Below, piece by piece: positions 1-15,418 of a DNA stretch of 64,000 nucleotides. Position 1 is the stretch's first letter. Every line of letters begins with the position of its first letter. The stretch is from NCBI RefSeq assembly GCF_003790525.1, contig NZ_CP033635.1; one strand, 5' to 3'. The stretch is from Escherichia coli. Lineage in GTDB: Bacteria; Pseudomonadota; Gammaproteobacteria; Enterobacterales; Enterobacteriaceae. The notes beneath the pieces are model-generated. The model worked only from the letters and a program-made list of their open reading frames with translations, made no database searches and was not told where the DNA came from. The position numbers and the translations under genes are program-made.

Positions 1-1217
1 AAGGCGTTAATCTTCACGCCAGCAGGGGAATGAATGCTTATTCCGACGGGGAGTAGGGCGAGGAATGCCTGCGCCCACTGTGGATTTTTTTCGCGCAGGA
101 CGGCGTGATACCAGGCGCGCAGTAGCGCCTCCTGCCAGTCGGTTTTCCCGGCCCAGCGCAGCAGTTCAACGGGGGTAGCCTGCAGTTGCGTTTGCCACCA
201 GTCGAGCGGAACCGCTGCAACTATCTGATACAGCCACCATGCGCGCTGGCCCAACTTTTCGCCTTTGGGCTTAGTTTCTTCCAGCGCATCGGCCTTCCAC
301 TCTGGTAAGAACGCCTCCGGGGCATCAAGGGCGACGCGCAGCATTTTTTCTTTGCCGGATAAGCCTTTTAGCCTTTCAAGTAAGGTCTCAGGAGCGGGGG
401 ATGAACTGAGCAACGGCGCTAACCGAGACTTCATGCGCGAGATCCAGGCGCTTTCCGGCAGACAACACAGTAACCGTGCCGCAGTTTGCCGCACCTCTTT
501 GCTGCGATCGGATAATGTCTGTTCCAGAAAGGCTTCGTCGTGTTGGGAGATCCCCACTTCCAGCACAGCCAGCAGCTGTGCGCGTTCGCGGGCATCCAGC
601 GAACTCATCTCCTGCGCCAGCCGATCGCGACCCTGTTCCGGGGCGCGAATGCGCATTTGCGTCAGATATTGCAGACGCTGTTCGGACGTGCCGTGCAGCC
701 ACATTTCTTCATCCAGCGGAGCGTCAGTGGAGGCGAGAACATAGCCCCAATCGGCGTTGATTTGCGCCAGCCAGCACCCGCGAGCGCCCAGAACATTGGA
801 CAGGATGCCGCGTAGAGATGGCTTTTGCGCTCCATAATTCAGCAATGCTGGTAACAGCAGGGGCGGAGGAAGAAGTTGACGACGGACCAATAGATCAAGC
901 GCCGACCACAGCAACCGCGGCGGTCCTTCTGACAGCAGCAGATGCAGCAGTCCCGCAAAAGCCGGGTTGTTTATTGGCTCGGCATTTTCTTTATCGATTT
1001 CCGGCAGCGGTGCGGGGTCAATCGCCTGCGGCACCCAGCCAGCCAGATGGCAGAGCGCCAGAACGCCCGCCGAGCGCAGTAGCTGTTGCTCTGCGGATGT
1101 GTTATTCGCCAGTTCAGACAGTAACAGCCCAATCTCACTTTGCGACGCCGACGGTGTAAACGCTTTTTTGTCTGTGCCGAGTAGCGCTGTGCGGGTTAAA
1201 TTTTGCCATTCGTTCAT
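1..1217 (-). CDS. hypothetical protein, partial (>=405 aa, runs off window start); translationally coupled partner of the SWIM gene; not in ORF track
   Basis: Own reverse-strand translation from ATG at 1217..1215, which overlaps the SWIM stop TGA (1216..1214) as ATGA; GGAGG lies 6 nt upstream. Reads MNEWQNLTRTALLGTDKKAFTPSASQSEIGLLLSELANNTSAEQQLLRSAGVLALCHLAGW... with no stop down to position 1. Leu/Ala-rich, helical-looking. Confidence 0.6.
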   Translation of the reverse strand, partial: MNEWQNLTRTALLGTDKKAFTPSASQSEIGLLLSELANNTSAEQQLLRSAGVLALCHLAGWVPQAIDPAPLPEIDKENAEPINNPAFAGLLHLLLSEGPPRLLWSALDLLVRRQLLPPPLLLPALLNYGAQKPSLRGILSNVLGARGCWLAQINADWGYVLASTDAPLDEEMWLHGTSEQRLQYLTQMRIRAPEQGRDRLAQEMSSLDARERAQLLAVLEVGISQHDEAFLEQTLSDRSKEVRQTAARLLCCLPESAWISRMKSRLAPLLSSSPAPETLLERLKGLSGKEKMLRVALDAPEAFLPEWKADALEETKPKGEKLGQRAWWLYQIVAAVPLDWWQTQLQATPVELLRWAGKTDWQEALLRAWYHAVLREKNPQWAQAFLALLPVGISIHSPAGVKINA

Positions 1218-2536
1218 TGTGCGCCTCCGGTTGCCCAAATGACGCTACCGGCAAGCCAGGCGCTACAGGGCGTCAGCTGCTGACCATCCCATTCCCCCAT
1301 TAGCATAAACGGCGCGCCGCCGCTGGCCGCCAGTAACCGCCAACCCTCGTCCGACGACAGGTGCGTCGGTAAGTGCTGGCCCTGTGTCGAGACGAATCGC
1401 CAGCCGCTCTCGTGCGGGTAAATCAATATTTCGCTTACTCGCAGCGGCAGAGGCCATTGCCAGGGATTCGCGCTAAGCCGCTGCGCCATGTCATGCAGCG
1501 CGTCCGGGAGGGGTAATTCTGCAAGCGGGAATCTTTCACCGCGGGTAAACGGCTCCACAACCCGCGCCCGTAGCGGTGATGCGCCAGGGAAAAAGGCAAG
1601 CGCGCCCTGGCAGACTTGCCCGGTGATAAAGTGCTGGGGAAAGTTTTTACTACCGTGTGAATAGTCCAGCAGTAGCGCGGTGCGGTGGCTCTTTTCTCCG
1701 TACAGCCAGACCCGGCGTCGCCACAGATTATTCCCTTCTTGCGCGCTTTGACCTAAGACCTGCCAGTTATCGAGGCAGGTTAATCCGTCAGTGACGTCGT
1801 GTTTATCCGGGGGTATTCCCAATGCCGCATGGAGATCGCTAAGTTGTGCCGGGGATAACATTTGTTGCTGGCGCCAGGCGTCAATAATCAGCTGTAGCTG
1901 CCCCAGTTCTTTGCACAGGCTCGATGGCCATACCTCGGCGGTAGTAAAATGAGTGGTCAGATTGTTCAGGCGAGCGGCAATTCCCGGTAGTTGGGCGTCG
2001 ACCATGCGGGCGGCGATCCCGGCAAAAGGCAACTGTTGTGCAGAGATCTGCGCCAGACCGTGGCGGATCAGGTCGTGCATCCACTGTTCGAGGAAATCCA
2101 GCCCCGCCGTCATTTTTTGGTTGCGTGCCGCTTCCCGTTTGGCGGCAGCCTGCGGGTCGGCAGCTTTTGCCTCAGCCTGCTCTTTCTTCTCTTCTTTGCG
2201 AACCGCCCGCTGCTGGCGCGAGGTTAGCCACTCGCTTACCCATTCCGGCGGCTCGCCAGCGGTGAAACTTGCGGTGTGTTGCACCTGGAGAAAAAGCAAC
2301 GCAAGGCTATGTTTACAGGGGAATTTACGGCTGGGGCAGGAACATTTACAGGCCAGATCCTGTCTGTCGATTCGTACCTGATAAGGGCGGGAGCCGCTAC
2401 CTTTACACTCTCCCCAGAAGGCAGCCTCGCTATATCCGAGCGTCGGCCATTTTGCGGGAGCAACCAGGCCACGAGCCGCTTTAACCGAGGCGTCATCGGG
2501 CGCCAGGGCTTGCACTGATTCAACGGTCAGTTCCAT
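1214..2536 (-). CDS. SWIM zinc-finger domain protein, 440 aa, function unknown
   Basis: ORF-track protein carries a CxCxnCxH motif (CKCSCPSRKFPCKHSLALLF) typical of SWIM zinc fingers, followed by a charged linker (RKEEKKEQAEAKAADPQAAAKREAARNQ); no resemblance to GltF; GC-rich. Confidence 0.75.
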   Translation of the reverse strand: MELTVESVQALAPDDASVKAARGLVAPAKWPTLGYSEAAFWGECKGSGSRPYQVRIDRQDLACKCSCPSRKFPCKHSLALLFLQVQHTASFTAGEPPEWVSEWLTSRQQRAVRKEEKKEQAEAKAADPQAAAKREAARNQKMTAGLDFLEQWMHDLIRHGLAQISAQQLPFAGIAARMVDAQLPGIAARLNNLTTHFTTAEVWPSSLCKELGQLQLIIDAWRQQQMLSPAQLSDLHAALGIPPDKHDVTDGLTCLDNWQVLGQSAQEGNNLWRRRVWLYGEKSHRTALLLDYSHGSKNFPQHFITGQVCQGALAFFPGASPLRARVVEPFTRGERFPLAELPLPDALHDMAQRLSANPWQWPLPLRVSEILIYPHESGWRFVSTQGQHLPTHLSSDEGWRLLAASGGAPFMLMGEWDGQQLTPCSAWLAGSVIWATGGAQ

Positions 2537-2649
2537 TACAATTCTCTATTGGCGTGGGGAAATCGATGGGGTCAAGGAGGCGTTAAGCAAAGCAGGAGGA
2601 GACTGTTTTCCGTAACAGCGTATTGCGCGTCCATCGCAAATTTGTAGTG

Positions 2650-2679
2650 AGTATAGCGGGCGGTAAATTCAGGAAACAA
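2650..2679 (-). promoter_or_regulatory. candidate sigma70 promoter for the SWIM operon (-35 TTGTTT, 18-nt spacer, -10 TATACT on minus strand)
   Basis: Hexamers read on the reverse strand about 115 nt upstream of the SWIM start codon; motif match only. Confidence 0.3.
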
Positions 2680-2725
2680 TGGCGGATAGCGGAAAGTGTA
2701 GTTTTTCGGAAAAAGATAACTTTAT

Positions 2726-2758
2726 CCCGTGTAACCCGTTTTAAGCGGGCTACACGGG
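2726..2758 (-). terminator. hairpin immediately 3' of gltD (13-bp stem, one mismatch, 7-nt loop), followed on the transcript by a U-containing stretch
   Basis: Inverted repeat cccgtgtaacccg / cgggctacacggg 11 nt after the gltD stop; the U tract is interrupted. Confidence 0.4.
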
Positions 2759-2768
2759 AGGCTGCAAT

Positions 2769-4199
<1,431 letters not shown>

Positions 4200-7100
4200 T
4201 TACTGCGCCTGCACGCGCAACTCTGCTGCGCTACGACTACGGTGACCCAGCAGTGCTTTTACATCACTGGACTTCGGTTTAACCAGCGCGAATTTCGTGG
4301 CGAAGGTTGACCAGTTCGCCAGAATCTCTTCACCGCGCTGGGAACCGGTATGCTGCACATGCTCGGTGATAAGACCACGCAGATGCTCTTCATGGATCGC
4401 CAAATCGTCAACGCTTAAGACCTCGACCAGTTCCGGGTTAACGCGTTTGCGGAAATCGCCGCTTTCATCGAGAACGTAAGCGAAGCCACCGGTCATGCCC
4501 GCGCCGAAGTTAACGCCGGTTTTACCCAGAATACAGACAATACCGCCCGTCATATATTCACAGCCGTTGTCGCCAATGCCTTCTACCACGGTGATAGCAC
4601 CGGAGTTACGTACGCCGAAACGTTCACCCGCGCGGCCTGCGGCATACAGACGACCTCCGGTCGCGCCATACAGGCAGGTGTTGCCGATAATGCTTGCTTC
4701 ATGGCTGCGGAAGGCTGAGCCAACCGGAGGACGAATGGCAATTAAGCCGCCCGCCATGCCTTTACCGACATAGTCGTTAGCATCGCCGGTCAGATACAGT
4801 TCCACGCCGCCCGCGTTCCACACACCGAAGCTCTGGCCTGCGGTGCCGTTGAAGTATGCTTTGATCGGATCGGCAGCCAGCCCCTGATCGCCGTGCGTCT
4901 GGGCGATATAGCCTGAAAGCGACGCGCCGACAGAACGATCGGTGTTGCGGATATCGAACCAGAAGGTTTTGCTCTGGCGTTCATCGACAAACGGTTTTGC
5001 CTGTTGCAGCAACTGCGCGTTCAGTAGGCCGTTATCAAACGGCGGGTTGTTTTCGGTGCAGTAGAGTGCCTTACCTGCATTTGGCTCGGCAGTTTCCAGC
5101 AGCTTCGACAGCGCCAGTTTCTGCTGTTTGGCGGTGAAACCGTCCAGCTCTTTCAGCAGGTCGGTGCGACCAATCAGATCCACCAGACGCGTTACCCCCA
5201 GCTGTGCCATCAGCTCGCGGGTTTCACGGGCGATAAACTCAAAGTAATTAGTCACTTTGAACGGCAGGCCGTGATAGTGATTCTTACGCAGTTTGTCATC
5301 CTGAGTTGCTACACCCGTGGCGCAGTTGTTCAGGTGGCAAATTCGCAGATATTTACAGCCAAGCGCTACCATCGGGCCAGTGCCGAAGCCGAAGCTTTCT
5401 GCGCCGAGAATCGCCGCTTTGATGATATCAACGCCGGTTTTCAGGCCGCCATCAACCTGCAAACGGATCTTGTGACGCAAGCCGTTGGCAACCAGCGCCT
5501 GTTGGGTTTCAACAAGCCCCAGCTCCCACGGACAGCCTGCGTATTTCACCGATGAAAGCGGACTTGCGCCGGTGCCGCCGTCATAGCCTGCGATGGTGAT
5601 TAAATCGGCATAAGCTTTTGCCACGCCAGTCGCGATGGTGCCTACGCCCGGTTCGGAAACCAGCTTCACGGAGATCATCGCTTTTGGATTGACCTGCTTG
5701 AGGTCGAAAATCAGCTGCGCTAAATCCTCAATAGAGTAGATATCGTGGTGCGGCGGCGGGGAGATCAGCGTCACGCCCGGCACCGAATAGCGCAGTTTGG
5801 CAATGTAAGGAGTGACTTTATCACCCGGTAACTGACCACCTTCACCCGGCTTCGCGCCCTGGGCGACTTTTATCTGAATGACGTCGGCATTGACCAGGTA
5901 CGCCGGAGTAACGCCGAAGCGACCGGACGCCACCTGCTTGATGCGCGACACTTTGTTAGTGCCATAGCGCGCCGGGTCTTCACCGCCTTCGCCGGAGTTT
6001 GAGTTACCGCCGATGCTGTTCATCGCTTCCGCCAGCGCCTCGTGGGCTTCCGGGCTTAACGCGCCGATAGACATCGCGGCGGTATCGAAGCGTTTAAACA
6101 GTTCGCTTGCCGGTTCAACATCGGCAATGTTGACTGCGTTTTCACCCGGCGTAATTGCCAGCAGATCGCGCAGCGTGGTTGCCGGACGCTCATTAACCAG
6201 CTTCGCGTATTCCTGATAGTCGCTATACTCGCCGCTCTGTACCGCCTGTTGCAGCGTGCGCACCACGTCCGGGTTGTAGGCGTGGTATTCGCCGCCGTGC
6301 ACGTATTTCAGCAGGCCGCCCTGGCTGATGGGCTTACGCGCCAGCCAGGCACGTTTCGACAGATTCAGCAGATCCTGCTGGAAGTCTTCAAAGCTAGCCC
6401 CCCCAATGCGGCTAACCGCCCCCTGGAAGCACAGGCCCACGACATCATCGTGCAGACCGACCGCTTCAAACAGTTTCGAGCAGCGGTAAGAGGCGATGGT
6501 GGAGATGCCCATTTTGGACATGATTTTGTACAAGCCTTTGTTGATGCCGTTACGATAGTTGAGCATCACGGTACGATAATCTTTGGCAATCGCGTGGGTG
6601 TCTACCAGACGGCCCAGCGTTTCATAGGCAAGGTACGGATAAATAGCCGTCGCGCCGAAACCCAGCAACACGGCGAAGTGGTGCGGATCACGGGCGCTGG
6701 CGGTTTCGACGATGATGTTGGCATCGCAACGCAGGCTTTGATCGACCAGACGGGTCTGGATCGCGCCAACCGCCATCGGAGCCGGAACCGGCAGGCGATC
6801 TTTAGCGATATTCCGGTCGGAGAGCACCAGCAGTACGGTGCCGCTACGTACCATTTTTTCGGCTTTGTCGCACAGTTCTTTCACCGTCGCTTCGAGCGTG
6901 GTTTTAGTGACGTCAAAGGTGATATCCAGCGTATCTGCGCGGTAGTGATCCTCTTTCATCGTCGTGAGCTGTTTGAAATCGGAATAGAGCAGAATCGGCG
7001 ATTTAAAGCTTAAACGGTGCGCCTGGCCTTCTGCTTCGCAGAAGACGTTCATTTCGCGGCCAATGCTGGTGGCGAGCGACATAACATGCGCTTCACGCAG

Positions 7101-8660
7101 CGGGTCGATTGGCGGGTTAGTCACCTGGGCAAATTGCTGGCGGAAGTAGTCGTAAATAATGCGCGGCTGACTGGAGAGCACGGCGAATGGGGTGTCGTCG
7201 CCCATCGAACCGACCGCTTCCTGACCGTTTTCACCCAGTACGCGGATCACCGAATCCAGCTCTTCCGCGCTGTAGTTAAATTGTTTCTGGTAGCTGGCAA
7301 GCGTGTCGTCGTCCAGTTCGCGGCTACCCACTTCTTCATCGGGCAGATCTTCAAACGGTACCAGACGGCGGACGTTTTTCTCCATCCACTCTTTATAAGG
7401 GTGGCGGCTTTTCAGATCGTCATCGGTTTCTGCCGAGTGCAGAATACGCCCACTGCGGGTGTCGATCACCATCAGTTCGCCTGGCCCCACGCGGCCTTTT
7501 TCGACCACTTCGTCAGGCTGATAATCCCAGATACCGACTTCAGAGGCGCAGGTAATGAGCTTATCTTTGGTGATGACATAGCGTGCCGGACGCAGACCGT
7601 TACGGTCGAGGTTACAGGCGGCAAAACGACCGTCAGACATCACGATGCCTGCCGGGCCATCCCACGGCTCCATATGCATGGAGTTAAAGTCAAAGAAGGC
7701 ACGCAGTTCCGGGTCCATATCCGGGTTGTTCTGCCAGGCGGGTGGCACTAACAGACGCATGGCGCGGATGATATCCATCCCGCCTGCCAGCAGCAGTTCC
7801 AGCATGTTATCCATGGAACTGGAGTCAGAGCCGGTTTCGTTGACGAACGGCGCGGCGTCGTGCAGGTCAGGGATCAGCGGCGTCTGGAATTTATAGGTAC
7901 GCGCACGCGCCCATTGGCGGTTACCAGTGATGGTGTTGATTTCACCGTTATGCGCGAGGTAGCGGAACGGCTGTGCCAGCGGCCAGCGCGGTACGGTGTT
8001 AGTGGAAAAGCGCTGGTGGAACAGGCAAATGGCCGATTCCAGACGCAGGTCCGCAAGATCCAGATAAAAGCGCGGCAGATCCGCCGGCATACACAGACCT
8101 TTATAGATGTTCACCAGATTCGACAGGCTACAGACGTAGAAGTCTTTGTCGGCTTCGAGACGCTTTTCAATGCGGCGGCGGGCGATAAACAGACGGCGCT
8201 CCATATCGCGTGGACGCCAGCCTGCCGGGGCGTTCACAAAAATTTGCTCAATGCGTGGCAGAGAGGAGAGGGCGATTTCACCCAGCACGCCTTCGTTAGT
8301 GGGGACATCACGCCAGCCCACAATCGACAATGTTTCGCGTTGCAGCTCTTCTTCAACGATGCGGCGTGCGGCAGCGGCGAGTTCAGGATCTTTATTCAGG
8401 AAGAGCATCCCGACAGCGTAGTTTTTTGCTAAACGCCAGCCGCGCTCCTGCGCAACGATGCGAAAAAAGCGATCCGGTTTTTGTAACAGCAAGCCGCAAC
8501 CGTCACCGGTTTTACCATCGGCGAGAATCGCGCCACGGTGCTGCATGCGGGCCAGTGCGTGTATTGCAGTACGCACTACCTTGTGGCTAGGTTCGCCTTC
8601 TATGTGGGCGATCAGGCCGAAACCACAGTTATCCCTCTCAAGGGATTTATCGTACAACAT
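4200..8660 (-). CDS. gltB: glutamate synthase large subunit (1486 aa; ORF-track N-terminal extension trimmed by 36 codons)
   Basis: ORF 4200..8768 contains MLYDKSLERDNCGFGLIAHIEGEPSHK..., the GltB N-terminus; the amidotransferase Cys follows the start. Confidence 0.93.
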   Translation of the reverse strand: MLYDKSLERDNCGFGLIAHIEGEPSHKVVRTAIHALARMQHRGAILADGKTGDGCGLLLQKPDRFFRIVAQERGWRLAKNYAVGMLFLNKDPELAAAARRIVEEELQRETLSIVGWRDVPTNEGVLGEIALSSLPRIEQIFVNAPAGWRPRDMERRLFIARRRIEKRLEADKDFYVCSLSNLVNIYKGLCMPADLPRFYLDLADLRLESAICLFHQRFSTNTVPRWPLAQPFRYLAHNGEINTITGNRQWARARTYKFQTPLIPDLHDAAPFVNETGSDSSSMDNMLELLLAGGMDIIRAMRLLVPPAWQNNPDMDPELRAFFDFNSMHMEPWDGPAGIVMSDGRFAACNLDRNGLRPARYVITKDKLITCASEVGIWDYQPDEVVEKGRVGPGELMVIDTRSGRILHSAETDDDLKSRHPYKEWMEKNVRRLVPFEDLPDEEVGSRELDDDTLASYQKQFNYSAEELDSVIRVLGENGQEAVGSMGDDTPFAVLSSQPRIIYDYFRQQFAQVTNPPIDPLREAHVMSLATSIGREMNVFCEAEGQAHRLSFKSPILLYSDFKQLTTMKEDHYRADTLDITFDVTKTTLEATVKELCDKAEKMVRSGTVLLVLSDRNIAKDRLPVPAPMAVGAIQTRLVDQSLRCDANIIVETASARDPHHFAVLLGFGATAIYPYLAYETLGRLVDTHAIAKDYRTVMLNYRNGINKGLYKIMSKMGISTIASYRCSKLFEAVGLHDDVVGLCFQGAVSRIGGASFEDFQQDLLNLSKRAWLARKPISQGGLLKYVHGGEYHAYNPDVVRTLQQAVQSGEYSDYQEYAKLVNERPATTLRDLLAITPGENAVNIADVEPASELFKRFDTAAMSIGALSPEAHEALAEAMNSIGGNSNSGEGGEDPARYGTNKVSRIKQVASGRFGVTPAYLVNADVIQIKVAQGAKPGEGGQLPGDKVTPYIAKLRYSVPGVTLISPPPHHDIYSIEDLAQLIFDLKQVNPKAMISVKLVSEPGVGTIATGVAKAYADLITIAGYDGGTGASPLSSVKYAGCPWELGLVETQQALVANGLRHKIRLQVDGGLKTGVDIIKAAILGAESFGFGTGPMVALGCKYLRICHLNNCATGVATQDDKLRKNHYHGLPFKVTNYFEFIARETRELMAQLGVTRLVDLIGRTDLLKELDGFTAKQQKLALSKLLETAEPNAGKALYCTENNPPFDNGLLNAQLLQQAKPFVDERQSKTFWFDIRNTDRSVGASLSGYIAQTHGDQGLAADPIKAYFNGTAGQSFGVWNAGGVELYLTGDANDYVGKGMAGGLIAIRPPVGSAFRSHEASIIGNTCLYGATGGRLYAAGRAGERFGVRNSGAITVVEGIGDNGCEYMTGGIVCILGKTGVNFGAGMTGGFAYVLDESGDFRKRVNPELVEVLSVDDLAIHEEHLRGLITEHVQHTGSQRGEEILANWSTFATKFALVKPKSSDVKALLGHRSRSAAELRVQAQ

Positions 8661-9333
8661 ATCGTGAACCTCCCCCAGGCTCTGCGGGAACCCCACTTCC
8701 GAACCGCTGCGCACGGGCACAGAAAGAGCGTGGCGACGGGGTTTGCGTGTCATACGCGCACCTCGCATTCGCCCCCTTGTTGTCCTTTTCGCATCGGTTA
8801 ATACGGTGAAGAGGGGATCTCAATTACTGCATAAATATGATGAGCAGGCTGCTCATCCAGAAAGCTTCCAGCGGATTTCCAACTTATCGGGAAAGCTGAT
8901 ACAGGTCAAATGGCAAGCTTATTGGTACAGAAATGTGCTTTAGCGCAAAATTCTTTATTAATTGTCTGAAATTAAAGTGGATTTTCTATTTAAGGCTAAA
9001 AGGGCGTCGTTAGAGAAACAGTCAATTCCTGACTGTCATAAAGGCGTGTTAACCCTTATCCTGCCTTGAACTGACGAGAAAACCAGCATTTTATACTGCC
9101 TTAATTGGTAATAACGTTTCATGCTACTGTTTTTGCCTAAAATCCATAAGGAGATAAAAAAATCTGACACAAGATAAGCAAAAGTGATTTATGTGATTGT
9201 GCATGAAATTTCGGTAATTTTGATTGATTATGCAGTTGATAAAAGCAGGCCGGGACGATTGATCCAGGTCATCGCCGAATTGAGCTAAAAATGGCAGGCT
9301 TTGGCCTCTTTTCAAGGCGCGGTCTATCAGATT
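8661..9333. promoter_or_regulatory. AT-rich divergent gltB / yhcC control region
   Basis: About 670 bp non-coding, AT-rich; known in E. coli to carry the gltBD promoter with Lrp/IHF/CRP sites; individual sites not mapped here. Confidence 0.45.
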
Positions 9334-13578: not shown

Positions 13579-14303
13579 GTAAAAGCCGCTTAACGGTGTT
13601 TAGTTTCGTTCGCCGTTTTCTTCTGCGGTTAATGGTTGTCCTCGCCGTTTTCTGGGGCGGGGGCATCGCGTTGTTTAGCGTTGCGCCTGTTCCCTTCTCA
13701 GCGGTAATGGTTGAGCGGCAAGTCAGCGCCTGGCTGCATGGCAATTTTCGTTACGTGGCACATTCTGACTGGGTCAGTATGGATCAAATCTCGCCGTGGA
13801 TGGGACTGGCGGTGATTGCCGCAGAAGATCAGAAATTTCCTGAGCACTGGGGCTTTGATGTCGCTTCCATTGAGCAAGCCCTGGCGCACAACGAACGCAA
13901 TGAAAACCGTATTCGCGGTGCGTCAACGATTTCTCAGCAGACAGCCAAAAATCTCTTTTTATGGGATGGGCGCAGCTGGGTTCGAAAAGGGCTGGAAGCC
14001 GGATTAACGCTGGGGATAGAAACGGTCTGGAGCAAAAAGCGTATCCTGACGGTTTACCTGAATATCGCCGAATTTGGCGACGGTGTGTTTGGCGTCGAAG
14101 CTGCGGCACAACGTTATTTCCACAAACCCGCGAGCAAGCTTACCCGGTCGGAAGCTGCATTACTGGCAGCTGTATTACCTAATCCACTTCGTTTCAAAGT
14201 CTCCGCGCCATCGGGCTACGTGCGTAGCCGTCAGGCGTGGATTTTACGGCAGATGTATCAGTTAGGCGGTGAGCCGTTTATGCAACAACACCAGCTTGAT
14301 TAA
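13575..14303 (+). CDS. mtgA: monofunctional peptidoglycan glycosyltransferase
   Basis: 242-aa ORF with transglycosylase motifs ([16 protein letters not shown]); 4-nt overlap with the elbB stop. Confidence 0.93.
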
Positions 14304-14932
14304 GCTTCGCGCGAAGTGAGGGCCAGCGTTTTGCTCTCACGAGGTTGCAGATCTTTCTGCAGGGCAATAGCCAGCGCCGGTTGGGCGATAAATCGTTTCC
14401 ACAACCGCTCTTGCTTACGCAGACAACACCACTTCGACCAGGTCGCCAGTGGAATCAATGTGCTTTCACCAATGTTGTCGCAGACGACGGGGATAACCTC
14501 TGACTCACTGATGCGATGACAAAGGATATTCTGCGGCTTCAGCGACATCGTCACGATACGGTTATCCTGTAAATAACGCTTCAGCTGTTTCAGTAGCTGG
14601 CGCAGTTGTGCAATGTCTTCTTCGTAACGGCATTGTTCAGCAAATTCGGTCAGCGTAATGGAGGGCTTGCCGTCAAAATCTGCAATCACATCGTAGACAT
14701 AACCGGTTCCGCAATCCGTCTCAACGGTACCGTGATAGCGCGGTATTCCACTCCAGTCTTTTAACCGGCGACCAAGATGCGCGTAGTACTTTAACTCACG
14801 GCGGATCTCTTTATCGCCACCATCGCCACGATGGTAGACAATCTTGATACAGCGTTGGGCATCTTCCGGATGCGCATAACATTTCCGATGTCTTCCGGTG
14901 CCCAGGGGACTTTGTTCAGATAAGCGAATCAT
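14300..14932 (-). CDS. yrbL: PhoP-regulated protein YrbL (210 aa; ORF-track start trimmed)
   Basis: ORF contains [28 protein letters not shown]... Confidence 0.85.
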
Positions 14933-14982
14933 GCCATCTCCTGGAAATATTTTCTGACGATCTCCAGTATGGTCGATTAACT

Positions 14983-14999
14983 TAAACAAAACCTAAACA
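14983..14999 (-). promoter_or_regulatory. PhoP box (TGTTTA-N5-TGTTTA direct repeat) upstream of yrbL
   Basis: Reverse strand reads TGTTTAGGTTTTGTTTA about 50 bp upstream of the yrbL start. Confidence 0.55.
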
Positions 15000-15145
15000 A
15001 TGCCTCTTAAGGTTTTCTTAAGGTTCTTCTGAAAGTAAAAAGCGCACAAAATGTACAAATGACGTTGATTGAGAACGATTTCAGTACGTGATTTTCTTAT
15101 TGTCGGGGGGAGTTTGAAGGGAGTTGTATGTCAAAGTGATGAAGA

Positions 15146-15418
15146 TTAATCTTCATCAAAACCAGAATTAAAGAGGGCGATAACGGCGGCCAGTGCTTCC
15201 TCTTCCTGTGGACCGGTCGCTTCAACTTCAATCTGCCGTCCTTTGGCAGAATCCAACATCAGCAGCGCAATAACGCTGTTGGCTTCAGCCTCGGTGCCTT
15301 CGTCATTACGTAACAGCACTTCAGCGTCAAAACCTTGCATTAATTCAAACAGCTTCATTGCAGGCCGGGCATGCATGCCCAGCTTGTTTGTGATTTCAAC
15401 AGTTTGCTTGACGGTCAT
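15146..15418 (-). CDS. npr: phosphocarrier protein NPr
   Basis: 90-aa [29 protein letters not shown]... Confidence 0.93.

Follow-up and report, generated by a model that had tools for sequence, protein, structure and literature searches.

A DUF5691 gene cut by the edge of an Escherichia coli sequence window and its place in a conserved five-gene MoxR-VWA cassette

In the NorQ/NorD, CoxD/CoxE, CbbQ/CbbO, and RavA/ViaA systems a gene for an AAA_5/MoxR ATPase lies beside a gene for a VWA-domain protein bearing a metal ion-dependent adhesion site (MIDAS), and these two-component systems are found next to the genes of their client enzymes. Midasin (Rea1), a eukaryotic AAA+ protein of ribosome assembly, is one giant polypeptide with six AAA modules, and its AAA_5 modules work together with long helical elements and a C-terminal MIDAS/VWA domain in pulling factors from a substrate. 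The vWA-MoxR-VMAP ternary conflict systems combine a MoxR ATPase and a vWA protein with dedicated partner proteins, and HEAT/TPR-type repeats are common on their vWA proteins (Kaur, Burroughs, Iyer and Aravind 2020, PMC7159879). The YehL subfamily of MoxR AAA+ ATPases was defined in literature cited by PMC3893208, and the cluster yehL-yehM-yehP-yehQ of E. coli K-12 encodes a MoxR ATPase, a DUF5682-type large protein, a VWA protein, and a SWIM protein; in the papers that name these four genes they are merely listed. Here we analysed a stretch of 64,000 nucleotides of the E. coli contig NZ_CP033635.1 (assembly GCF_003790525.1), referred to as the window, whose left edge cuts through a gene of the DUF5691 family. 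The gene belongs to a five-gene cassette which, compared with the MoxR-VWA pairs, has three more conserved proteins (SWIM, DUF5691, and DUF5682) and no conserved client gene nearby. The explanation that we consider best, and hold with high confidence, is that of a genuine DUF5691 gene within this cassette whose product would serve as a scaffold or adaptor in a MoxR-VWA machine.

Re-translation of the minus strand over window positions 1..1217 gave 405 codons with 0 stops, the peptide starting MNEWQNLTRTALLGTDKK, compared with 6-18 stops in each of the other five frames over the same interval; the chance of 405 open codons, calculated from the base composition, is approximately 1e-8. An original prediction, made from the letters and a program-made list of open reading frames (ORFs), had described a 405-codon reverse frame starting at the ATG at 1217..1215 that the list does not contain, and both the ORF list and our re-translation, which reproduced the quoted peptide and contained no in-frame stop, agree with this description. 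The frame is missing because the ORF list leaves out any ORF running off the end of its source. When flanking DNA was supplied (locus L001) the same ORF tool listed the frame at 13613..15238, corresponding to window -387..1238 and starting at a TTG. The last 129 codons and the stop (388 nt, L001 13613..14000) lie beyond the left window edge. Window positions 1..3000 are 100% identical to E. coli SMS-3-5 (NC_010498.1) and to several other strains, and the RefSeq entry for the frame in SMS-3-5 (ECSMS35_RS17720, WP_001007101.1) is a 'DUF5691 domain-containing protein' of 534 aa with the same start. A homology search with the 405-aa fragment matched the Pfam family DUF5691, and a profile of homologues retrieved thousands more. 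The frame is thus a bona fide protein-coding gene, on which the independent tests of codon usage, substitution pattern, and homology agree; it is already in RefSeq and Pfam, and the gene call itself is ordinary. The warning that annotation relying on the list alone would miss the second gene of a module holds for the ORF list, but there is no corresponding gap in public annotation; likewise, the gene does follow the SWIM gene, but the module consists of five genes, three of which lie beyond the left edge.

An alternative in-frame TTG start is located at window 1238, upstream of the ATG at 1217, with the closest in-frame stop at 1247..1245. The ATG is the better start: it is the one annotated in RefSeq, a GGAGG motif lies between it and the TTG, and the alignments of homologues begin at residue 1. 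The original prediction had read this GGAGG as a Shine-Dalgarno sequence located 6 nt before the ATG and within the last part of the SWIM gene, and it was found there (1228..1224).

Coding potential was scored as a log-likelihood per codon, with gltB and gltD of this window serving to train the codon table. Minus frame 1 scored +0.07 and was the only frame with a positive value, the other five frames scoring -0.49 to -0.77 and the plus frames among them -0.49 to -0.63, so that no stronger coding signal was present on the plus strand. The window gene was then compared with two further E. coli alleles, both equal to it in length. Counted by codon position in minus frame 1, the differences in the window part of the gene were 24/17/45 and 23/18/39 for the two alleles, with a peak at the third position, and the ratio of nonsynonymous to synonymous substitution rates (dN/dS) over the whole gene was 0.26 and 0.29, which at the level of sequence comparison indicates purifying selection. 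The gene is full length with the same start and stop in all three E. coli alleles examined, which differ at approximately 7% of nucleotides.

The ORF list shows five overlapping plus-strand ORFs across the same DNA instead (Table 1). One start (GTG to GTA) and two stops of these ORFs are not kept between the E. coli alleles, and RefSeq annotates no plus-strand gene across window 1..1217. Their negative codon scores, the substitution pattern, the unconserved start and stops, and the missing RefSeq annotation bear out the view already taken in the original prediction that they are shadow frames of the DUF5691 gene and no genes. The opposite view, namely that the minus frame is open by chance and that one or more of the plus-strand ORFs, e.g., 265..744 with 159 aa, are real genes, is vanishingly improbable. 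The ORFs do exist, reaching up to 159 aa, and most of them remain open in the two other E. coli alleles, but the low chance of so long an open frame, the codon scores, a substitution pattern that matches minus frame 1, the absence of plus-strand genes in RefSeq, and the Pfam match (E = 1e-105) and thousands of homologues of the minus frame all speak against it. In general, the first or last gene of any window can vanish from such a list and be replaced by shadow ORFs, a systematic blind spot that can be remedied by allowing partial ORFs at the window ends.

Listed ORF starts also differed from gene starts elsewhere in the window. The ORF list gives gltB (window 4200-8768, minus strand) as 1,522 aa, while the RefSeq start lies 36 codons inward (window 8660, 1,486 aa) and the NCBIfam model aligns to the listed ORF from residue 35.

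Table 1. Features of the DUF5691 locus and of the adjoining cassette; coordinates refer to the window unless locus L001 is named.
Feature	Position	Strand	Basis
5' 76% (codons 1-405 of 534) of the DUF5691-family gene, ECSMS35_RS17720 / WP_001007101.1	1..1217	-	Open frame, Pfam, RefSeq, dN/dS, homologues
ATGA overlap: DUF5691 start 1217..1215, SWIM-gene stop TGA 1216..1214	1214..1217	-	Sequence; annotation gives 4-nt overlap
GGAGG Shine-Dalgarno-like motif within 3' end of SWIM gene	1224..1228	-	Sequence; 6-nt spacer 1223..1218 to ATG
Five overlapping ORFs: 265..744, 476..760, 540..815, 818..1159, 967..1242	within 265..1242	+	ORF list; read as shadow frames
Gene 1: SWIM zinc-finger family protein, WP_000424192.1, 440 aa	1214..2536	-	ORF list; Pfam SWIM
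Gene 2: DUF5691 protein, 534 aa	start at 1217	-	RefSeq
Gene 3: YehL-type MoxR AAA+ ATPase, 364 aa	L001 12522-13616, outside window	-	RefSeq
Gene 4: DUF5682 protein, 749 aa	beyond left window edge	-	RefSeq
Gene 5: CoxE-type VWA protein with MIDAS motif, 389 aa	beyond left window edge	-	RefSeq
Cassette-specific intergenic region, gltD stop to SWIM start, 232 nt	2537..2768		Comparison across genomes
Hairpin just downstream of gltD, 14-bp stem, 7-nt loop, T-run at a distance	2726..2758	-	RNA fold

The match of the fragment to the Pfam model PF18944 (DUF5691; 355.5 bits) covers residues 7-388 of the fragment and positions 2-362 of the 491 in the model. A word-based comparison yielded 127 homologues of the gene; 120 among the matches listed carry PF18944, many of them with 96-100% query coverage. 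In a search of cluster representatives (clusters formed at 50% identity), a profile built from 58 homologues recovered 6,270 sequences at E <= 1e-3, of which 3,653 reached E <= 1e-30; they are mostly of 500-550 aa and collinear from end to end, and full-length homologues occur in several phyla. In the alignment of the 58 sequences ten columns are invariant (L126, W149, L150, W157, R181, R189, D227, R243, P300, and W341), and all ten fall in the window fragment. The predicted fold is an all-alpha, HEAT-like alpha-solenoid with a predicted local distance difference test score (pLDDT) of 89.8; stacked antiparallel helix pairs forming a solenoid, the hallmark by which HEAT-repeat proteins are recognised, are seen in the model. 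The HEAT profile PF02985 gave one weak match (E = 0.4, residues 230-251). No recognisable catalytic domain and no other sign of an enzyme were seen in the predicted fold, and HEAT/alpha-solenoid repeat scaffolds such as the PP2A A subunit, AP-1 beta, CpcE/F, and E. coli YibA are among the closest known systems. NCBIfam has no family for either the DUF5691 or the SWIM protein, sequence searches of the PDB returned no match for DUF5691, SWIM, and VWA, nor for the DUF5682 profile, and no papers were found in a literature search on DUF5691, DUF5682, PF18944, and PF18934.

The five genes of the cassette are tightly packed and located between gltD and nanQ, with successive intergenic spacings of -4, -4, +17, and -11 nt according to the annotation. 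The first encodes a protein with a SWIM motif (CKCSCPSRKFPCKH; Pfam SWIM at residues 59-81, E = 2.4e-6). The cassette was present in 33 out of 5,426 complete E. coli genomes and was chromosomal in all of them. The spacer between gltD and the SWIM gene is confined to these 33 cassette-bearing genomes, with at least 99% identity, so that the accessory segment starts right after gltD; the remainder of the window, from gltBD to yhbO, is core E. coli genome. The spacer presumably is the cassette's own promoter region, and a scan with the sigma-70 consensus upstream of the SWIM gene found no promoter-like site. The hairpin at its gltD end (-26.7 kcal/mol, z = -5.1, with none of 200 shuffled sequences equally stable) may be the gltBD terminator that parts gltBD from the cassette; a terminator scan did not call it because its T-run is not adjacent to the stem. 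The guanine-plus-cytosine (GC) content of the cassette (approximately 57-58%) resembles that of the flanking gltBD and nan genes, and the composition gives no sign of foreign origin.

Sequence comparison identifies the uncharacterised yehLMPQ cluster of K-12 as the closest relative of the cassette. Over 350 residues the ATPase shares 41% identity with YehL; the VWA protein shares 38% with YehP over 363 residues, and the DUF5682 protein 27% with YehM over approximately 560 residues. The clusters differ in that the SWIM gene is last in K-12 and first in the cassette, and YehQ (614 aa, two weak SWIM motifs) has no BLAST similarity to the 440-aa cassette SWIM protein. No counterpart of DUF5691 was detected in the K-12 cluster by BLAST or by hhalign against YehQ and YehI (hhalign probability <1%).

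The ATPase carries the Walker A motif GVPGTAKS and the VWA protein the MIDAS motif DQSGS. Walker B reads VEE rather than the usual hhhhDE; VEE is kept in all six cassette homologues examined and the corresponding motif is FEE in YehL, by which comparison this variant is a family trait of YehL-type ATPases. The solved structures closest in sequence to the ATPase are midasin, the best match (E = 1e-15), and NorQ (E = 5e-6). In contrast to midasin the cassette encodes separate bacterial proteins, and nothing was seen that links them to ribosome assembly. In the homologous loci the VWA protein matches VWA_CoxE/VWA_2 only, with no fused effector recognised. DUF5682 would have an N-terminal alpha/beta domain, which may be TraB/TIKI-like, and a C-terminal half made of helical repeats. 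Members of the TIKI/TraB/ChaN/erythromycin-esterase superfamily have a parallel beta-sheet core flanked by helices and conserved His/Glu catalytic residues (PMC6254334). A Foldseek search of the DUF5682 model against the PDB returned no significant match, and the TraB/TIKI assignment stays a lead.

The context of DUF5691 was inspected at ten loci. The SWIM gene lies directly upstream of the DUF5691 gene in all ten, and all five genes are present in nine, arranged as two divergent units in Streptomyces and in the same order in the other eight, i.e., in E. coli, Klebsiella huaxiensis, the enterobacterial assembly GCA_048266505.1, Bilophila wadsworthia, the betaproteobacterium Pelomonas, Nocardioides, a metagenome contig, and the cyanobacterium Trichocoleus. 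Cyanobacteria and actinobacteria are both among the groups that carry the cassette. At the Hymenobacter locus (L004 11953-17806) the MoxR and DUF5682 genes are separated by four small inserted genes, of which two are of the SMI1_KNR4/SUKH type (immunity-protein-like), and no VWA gene was found in the 10-kb flank. The three enterobacterial loci (E. coli, K. huaxiensis, and GCA_048266505.1) occupy the same gltD/nanQ site, and the proteins of the latter two (L010, L006) are 57% (DUF5691), 68% (SWIM), and 76-77% (DUF5682) identical to those of E. coli. A site common to two genera suggests either that the cassette has long resided there and was lost from most E. coli, or that it was exchanged repeatedly via the conserved flanks. 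Outside this shared site the flanking genes differ among loci and are largely housekeeping or regulatory.

The pairing of the first two genes extends beyond the enterobacteria. SWIM orthologues with 31-68% identity are encoded directly upstream of DUF5691 in five other lineages. The ATGA junction of the SWIM and DUF5691 genes recurs in Klebsiella, Bilophila, and Trichocoleus, with TAATG in Hymenobacter, a 4-nt overlap is also present in loci L012-L014, and GGAGG or GGAG stands at the equivalent place in the Klebsiella, Bilophila, and Streptomyces homologues. The overlap suggests that the two genes are translationally coupled. Three database proteins of 965-1048 aa (P0291, P0351, and P0375) combine a full SWIM part (37-41% identical to the E. 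coli protein) with a full DUF5691 domain. They may be natural fusions, in which case they would back a physical association of the two proteins, or they may have arisen artefactually from a frameshift at the ATGA junction.

These observations lead to the following proposal. We regard it as somewhat probable that DUF5691 is a non-enzymatic scaffold or adaptor, and put the chance that it pairs directly with the SWIM protein at about even, the latter because the ATGA overlap is conserved across phyla and the three SWIM-DUF5691 fusion proteins exist. DUF5691 would be made in step with the SWIM protein by translational coupling and would then bind it, and the two together would be the arm by which a MoxR-VWA remodelling machine recognises its target or substrate. 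The AAA+ ring would supply ATP-driven force, the VWA/MIDAS protein would bridge the ring to its partners, and DUF5682 would form the large body of this complex and may carry a catalytic activity, possibly that of a hydrolase. The target of such a machine could be an endogenous client or an invader.

An endogenous client is at the centre of one alternative, in which the cassette is a dedicated chaperone for the maturation or assembly of an endogenous enzyme complex in the manner of NorQ/NorD, CoxD/CoxE, CbbQ/CbbO, and RavA/ViaA, with glutamate synthase as a possible client. Of the characterised MoxR-VWA pairs that PMC3893208 mentions, each helps one particular complex to mature. The cassette's VWA protein belongs to the CoxE type, the ATPase has NorQ among its nearest relatives of solved structure, and the cassette adjoins gltBD in both E. 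coli and Klebsiella. However, outside the Enterobacteriaceae the neighbours are unrelated, so that the cassette is not accompanied by a client gene, and most E. coli strains lack the cassette yet produce glutamate synthase. In addition, the hairpin and the cassette-specific spacer part it from gltBD, and nothing in the known chaperone pairs corresponds to SWIM, DUF5691, and DUF5682. We consider this role unlikely.

Divergence between E. coli cassette alleles (L001 versus L007 and L008) is uneven. The DUF5691 gene differs by 6.7-7.1%, with a dS of 0.16, compared with 0.6-2.6% for the SWIM, MoxR, DUF5682, and VWA genes, and the differences are concentrated in the window part (window 1-1100, L001 13,900-15,100) and fall to zero across the SWIM/DUF5691 junction. 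From the sequences this looks like either a recombination mosaic or a fast-evolving subunit. Another reading takes the gene for a pseudogene in decay, left over from an island gained horizontally, its frame still open and its function lost. The cassette is rare in E. coli (33/5,426 genomes), DUF5691 exceeds the ATPase and VWA genes in dN/dS, the adjacent yhcG has shrunk to a 123-nt remnant in SMS-3-5, and the protein database holds a truncated E. coli DUF5691 entry of 303 aa (P0006). Nevertheless, decay is very improbable: in three alleles approximately 7% apart the gene keeps its full length and the same start and stop, dN/dS points to purifying selection, all ten invariant family residues are present, and all five cassette genes are intact.

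The same divergence enters into a second alternative, namely that of a conflict system, anti-phage or other, in which SWIM/DUF5691 senses a component of the invader and the MoxR-VWA motor activates a DUF5682 hydrolase. DUF5691 is the most divergent cassette gene between the E. coli alleles, the cassette is an accessory segment of patchy occurrence within the species, the PDDEXK nuclease gene yhcG adjoins it in some strains, SUKH/SMI1_KNR4 genes are inserted in the Hymenobacter cassette, DUF5682 possibly has a TraB/TIKI-like domain, and ternary conflict systems built around MoxR and vWA are described in the literature (PMC7159879). That account of conflict systems, however, does not mention SWIM (0 occurrences), YehL, or YehP, and the cassette VWA protein is short (389 aa). 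PADLOC-DB 2.0 has no defence family for the SWIM, DUF5691, DUF5682, or VWA proteins, and the ATPase gave only marginal matches to IetA (E = 1e-3), in which no single domain passed by itself. The cassette also appears to stay off mobile elements: the plasmid collection yielded only five distant matches on chromids or megaplasmids, and the phage collection yielded 0 matches for DUF5691 and a single one for DUF5682, on an unannotated metagenomic 'Bacteriophage sp.' contig. Among the PHROGs none matched DUF5691 or SWIM, and DUF5682 and VWA matched unknown-function phrogs only. Moreover, the flanks at the loci inspected are largely housekeeping or regulatory with no evident defence island, Klebsiella and E. 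coli have the cassette at one and the same chromosomal site, conservation of the core proteins across phyla is high (DUF5682 is 58% identical to the Bilophila protein), and the raised divergence of DUF5691 includes synonymous sites, which argues for recombination rather than diversifying selection. A conflict role is on these grounds rather doubtful. By our own estimates the chaperone and conflict roles each take a similar, minor share of the probability, and the remainder falls to something else.

Within the preferred reading of a scaffold or adaptor in a MoxR-VWA machine, a bolder version can be formulated. The cassette might be a self-contained molecular machine of an undescribed kind in which a SWIM/HEAT-like pair directs the MoxR-VWA motor and a TraB/TIKI-like hydrolase to a specific target, for regulated proteolysis or quality control or for defence, and in which DUF5691 would be the fast-evolving specificity subunit because it is the most divergent gene between the E. 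coli alleles. We offer this version as a speculative one of low probability. The DUF5691 family alone comprises thousands of sequence clusters in at least five phyla. What is of value here, besides the lesson on edge-truncated ORFs, is the pointer to a conserved and widespread five-gene MoxR-VWA cassette for which no papers were found. As one genetically tractable E. coli strain carries it and most strains do not, it offers a natural presence/absence comparison for MoxR systems of the YehL class.

At its far end in SMS-3-5 (L001 8187-9090) the cassette adjoins a patch of low GC content (44-45%) with what is left of yhcG (DUF1016/PDDEXK nuclease), 123 nt, and with two small genes for hypothetical proteins of 190 and 48 aa. 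The 190-aa protein had no match in PADLOC or PHROG. In strain 2017-02-2CC an intact PDDEXK nuclease gene stands at this end of the cassette in place of the yhcG remnant.

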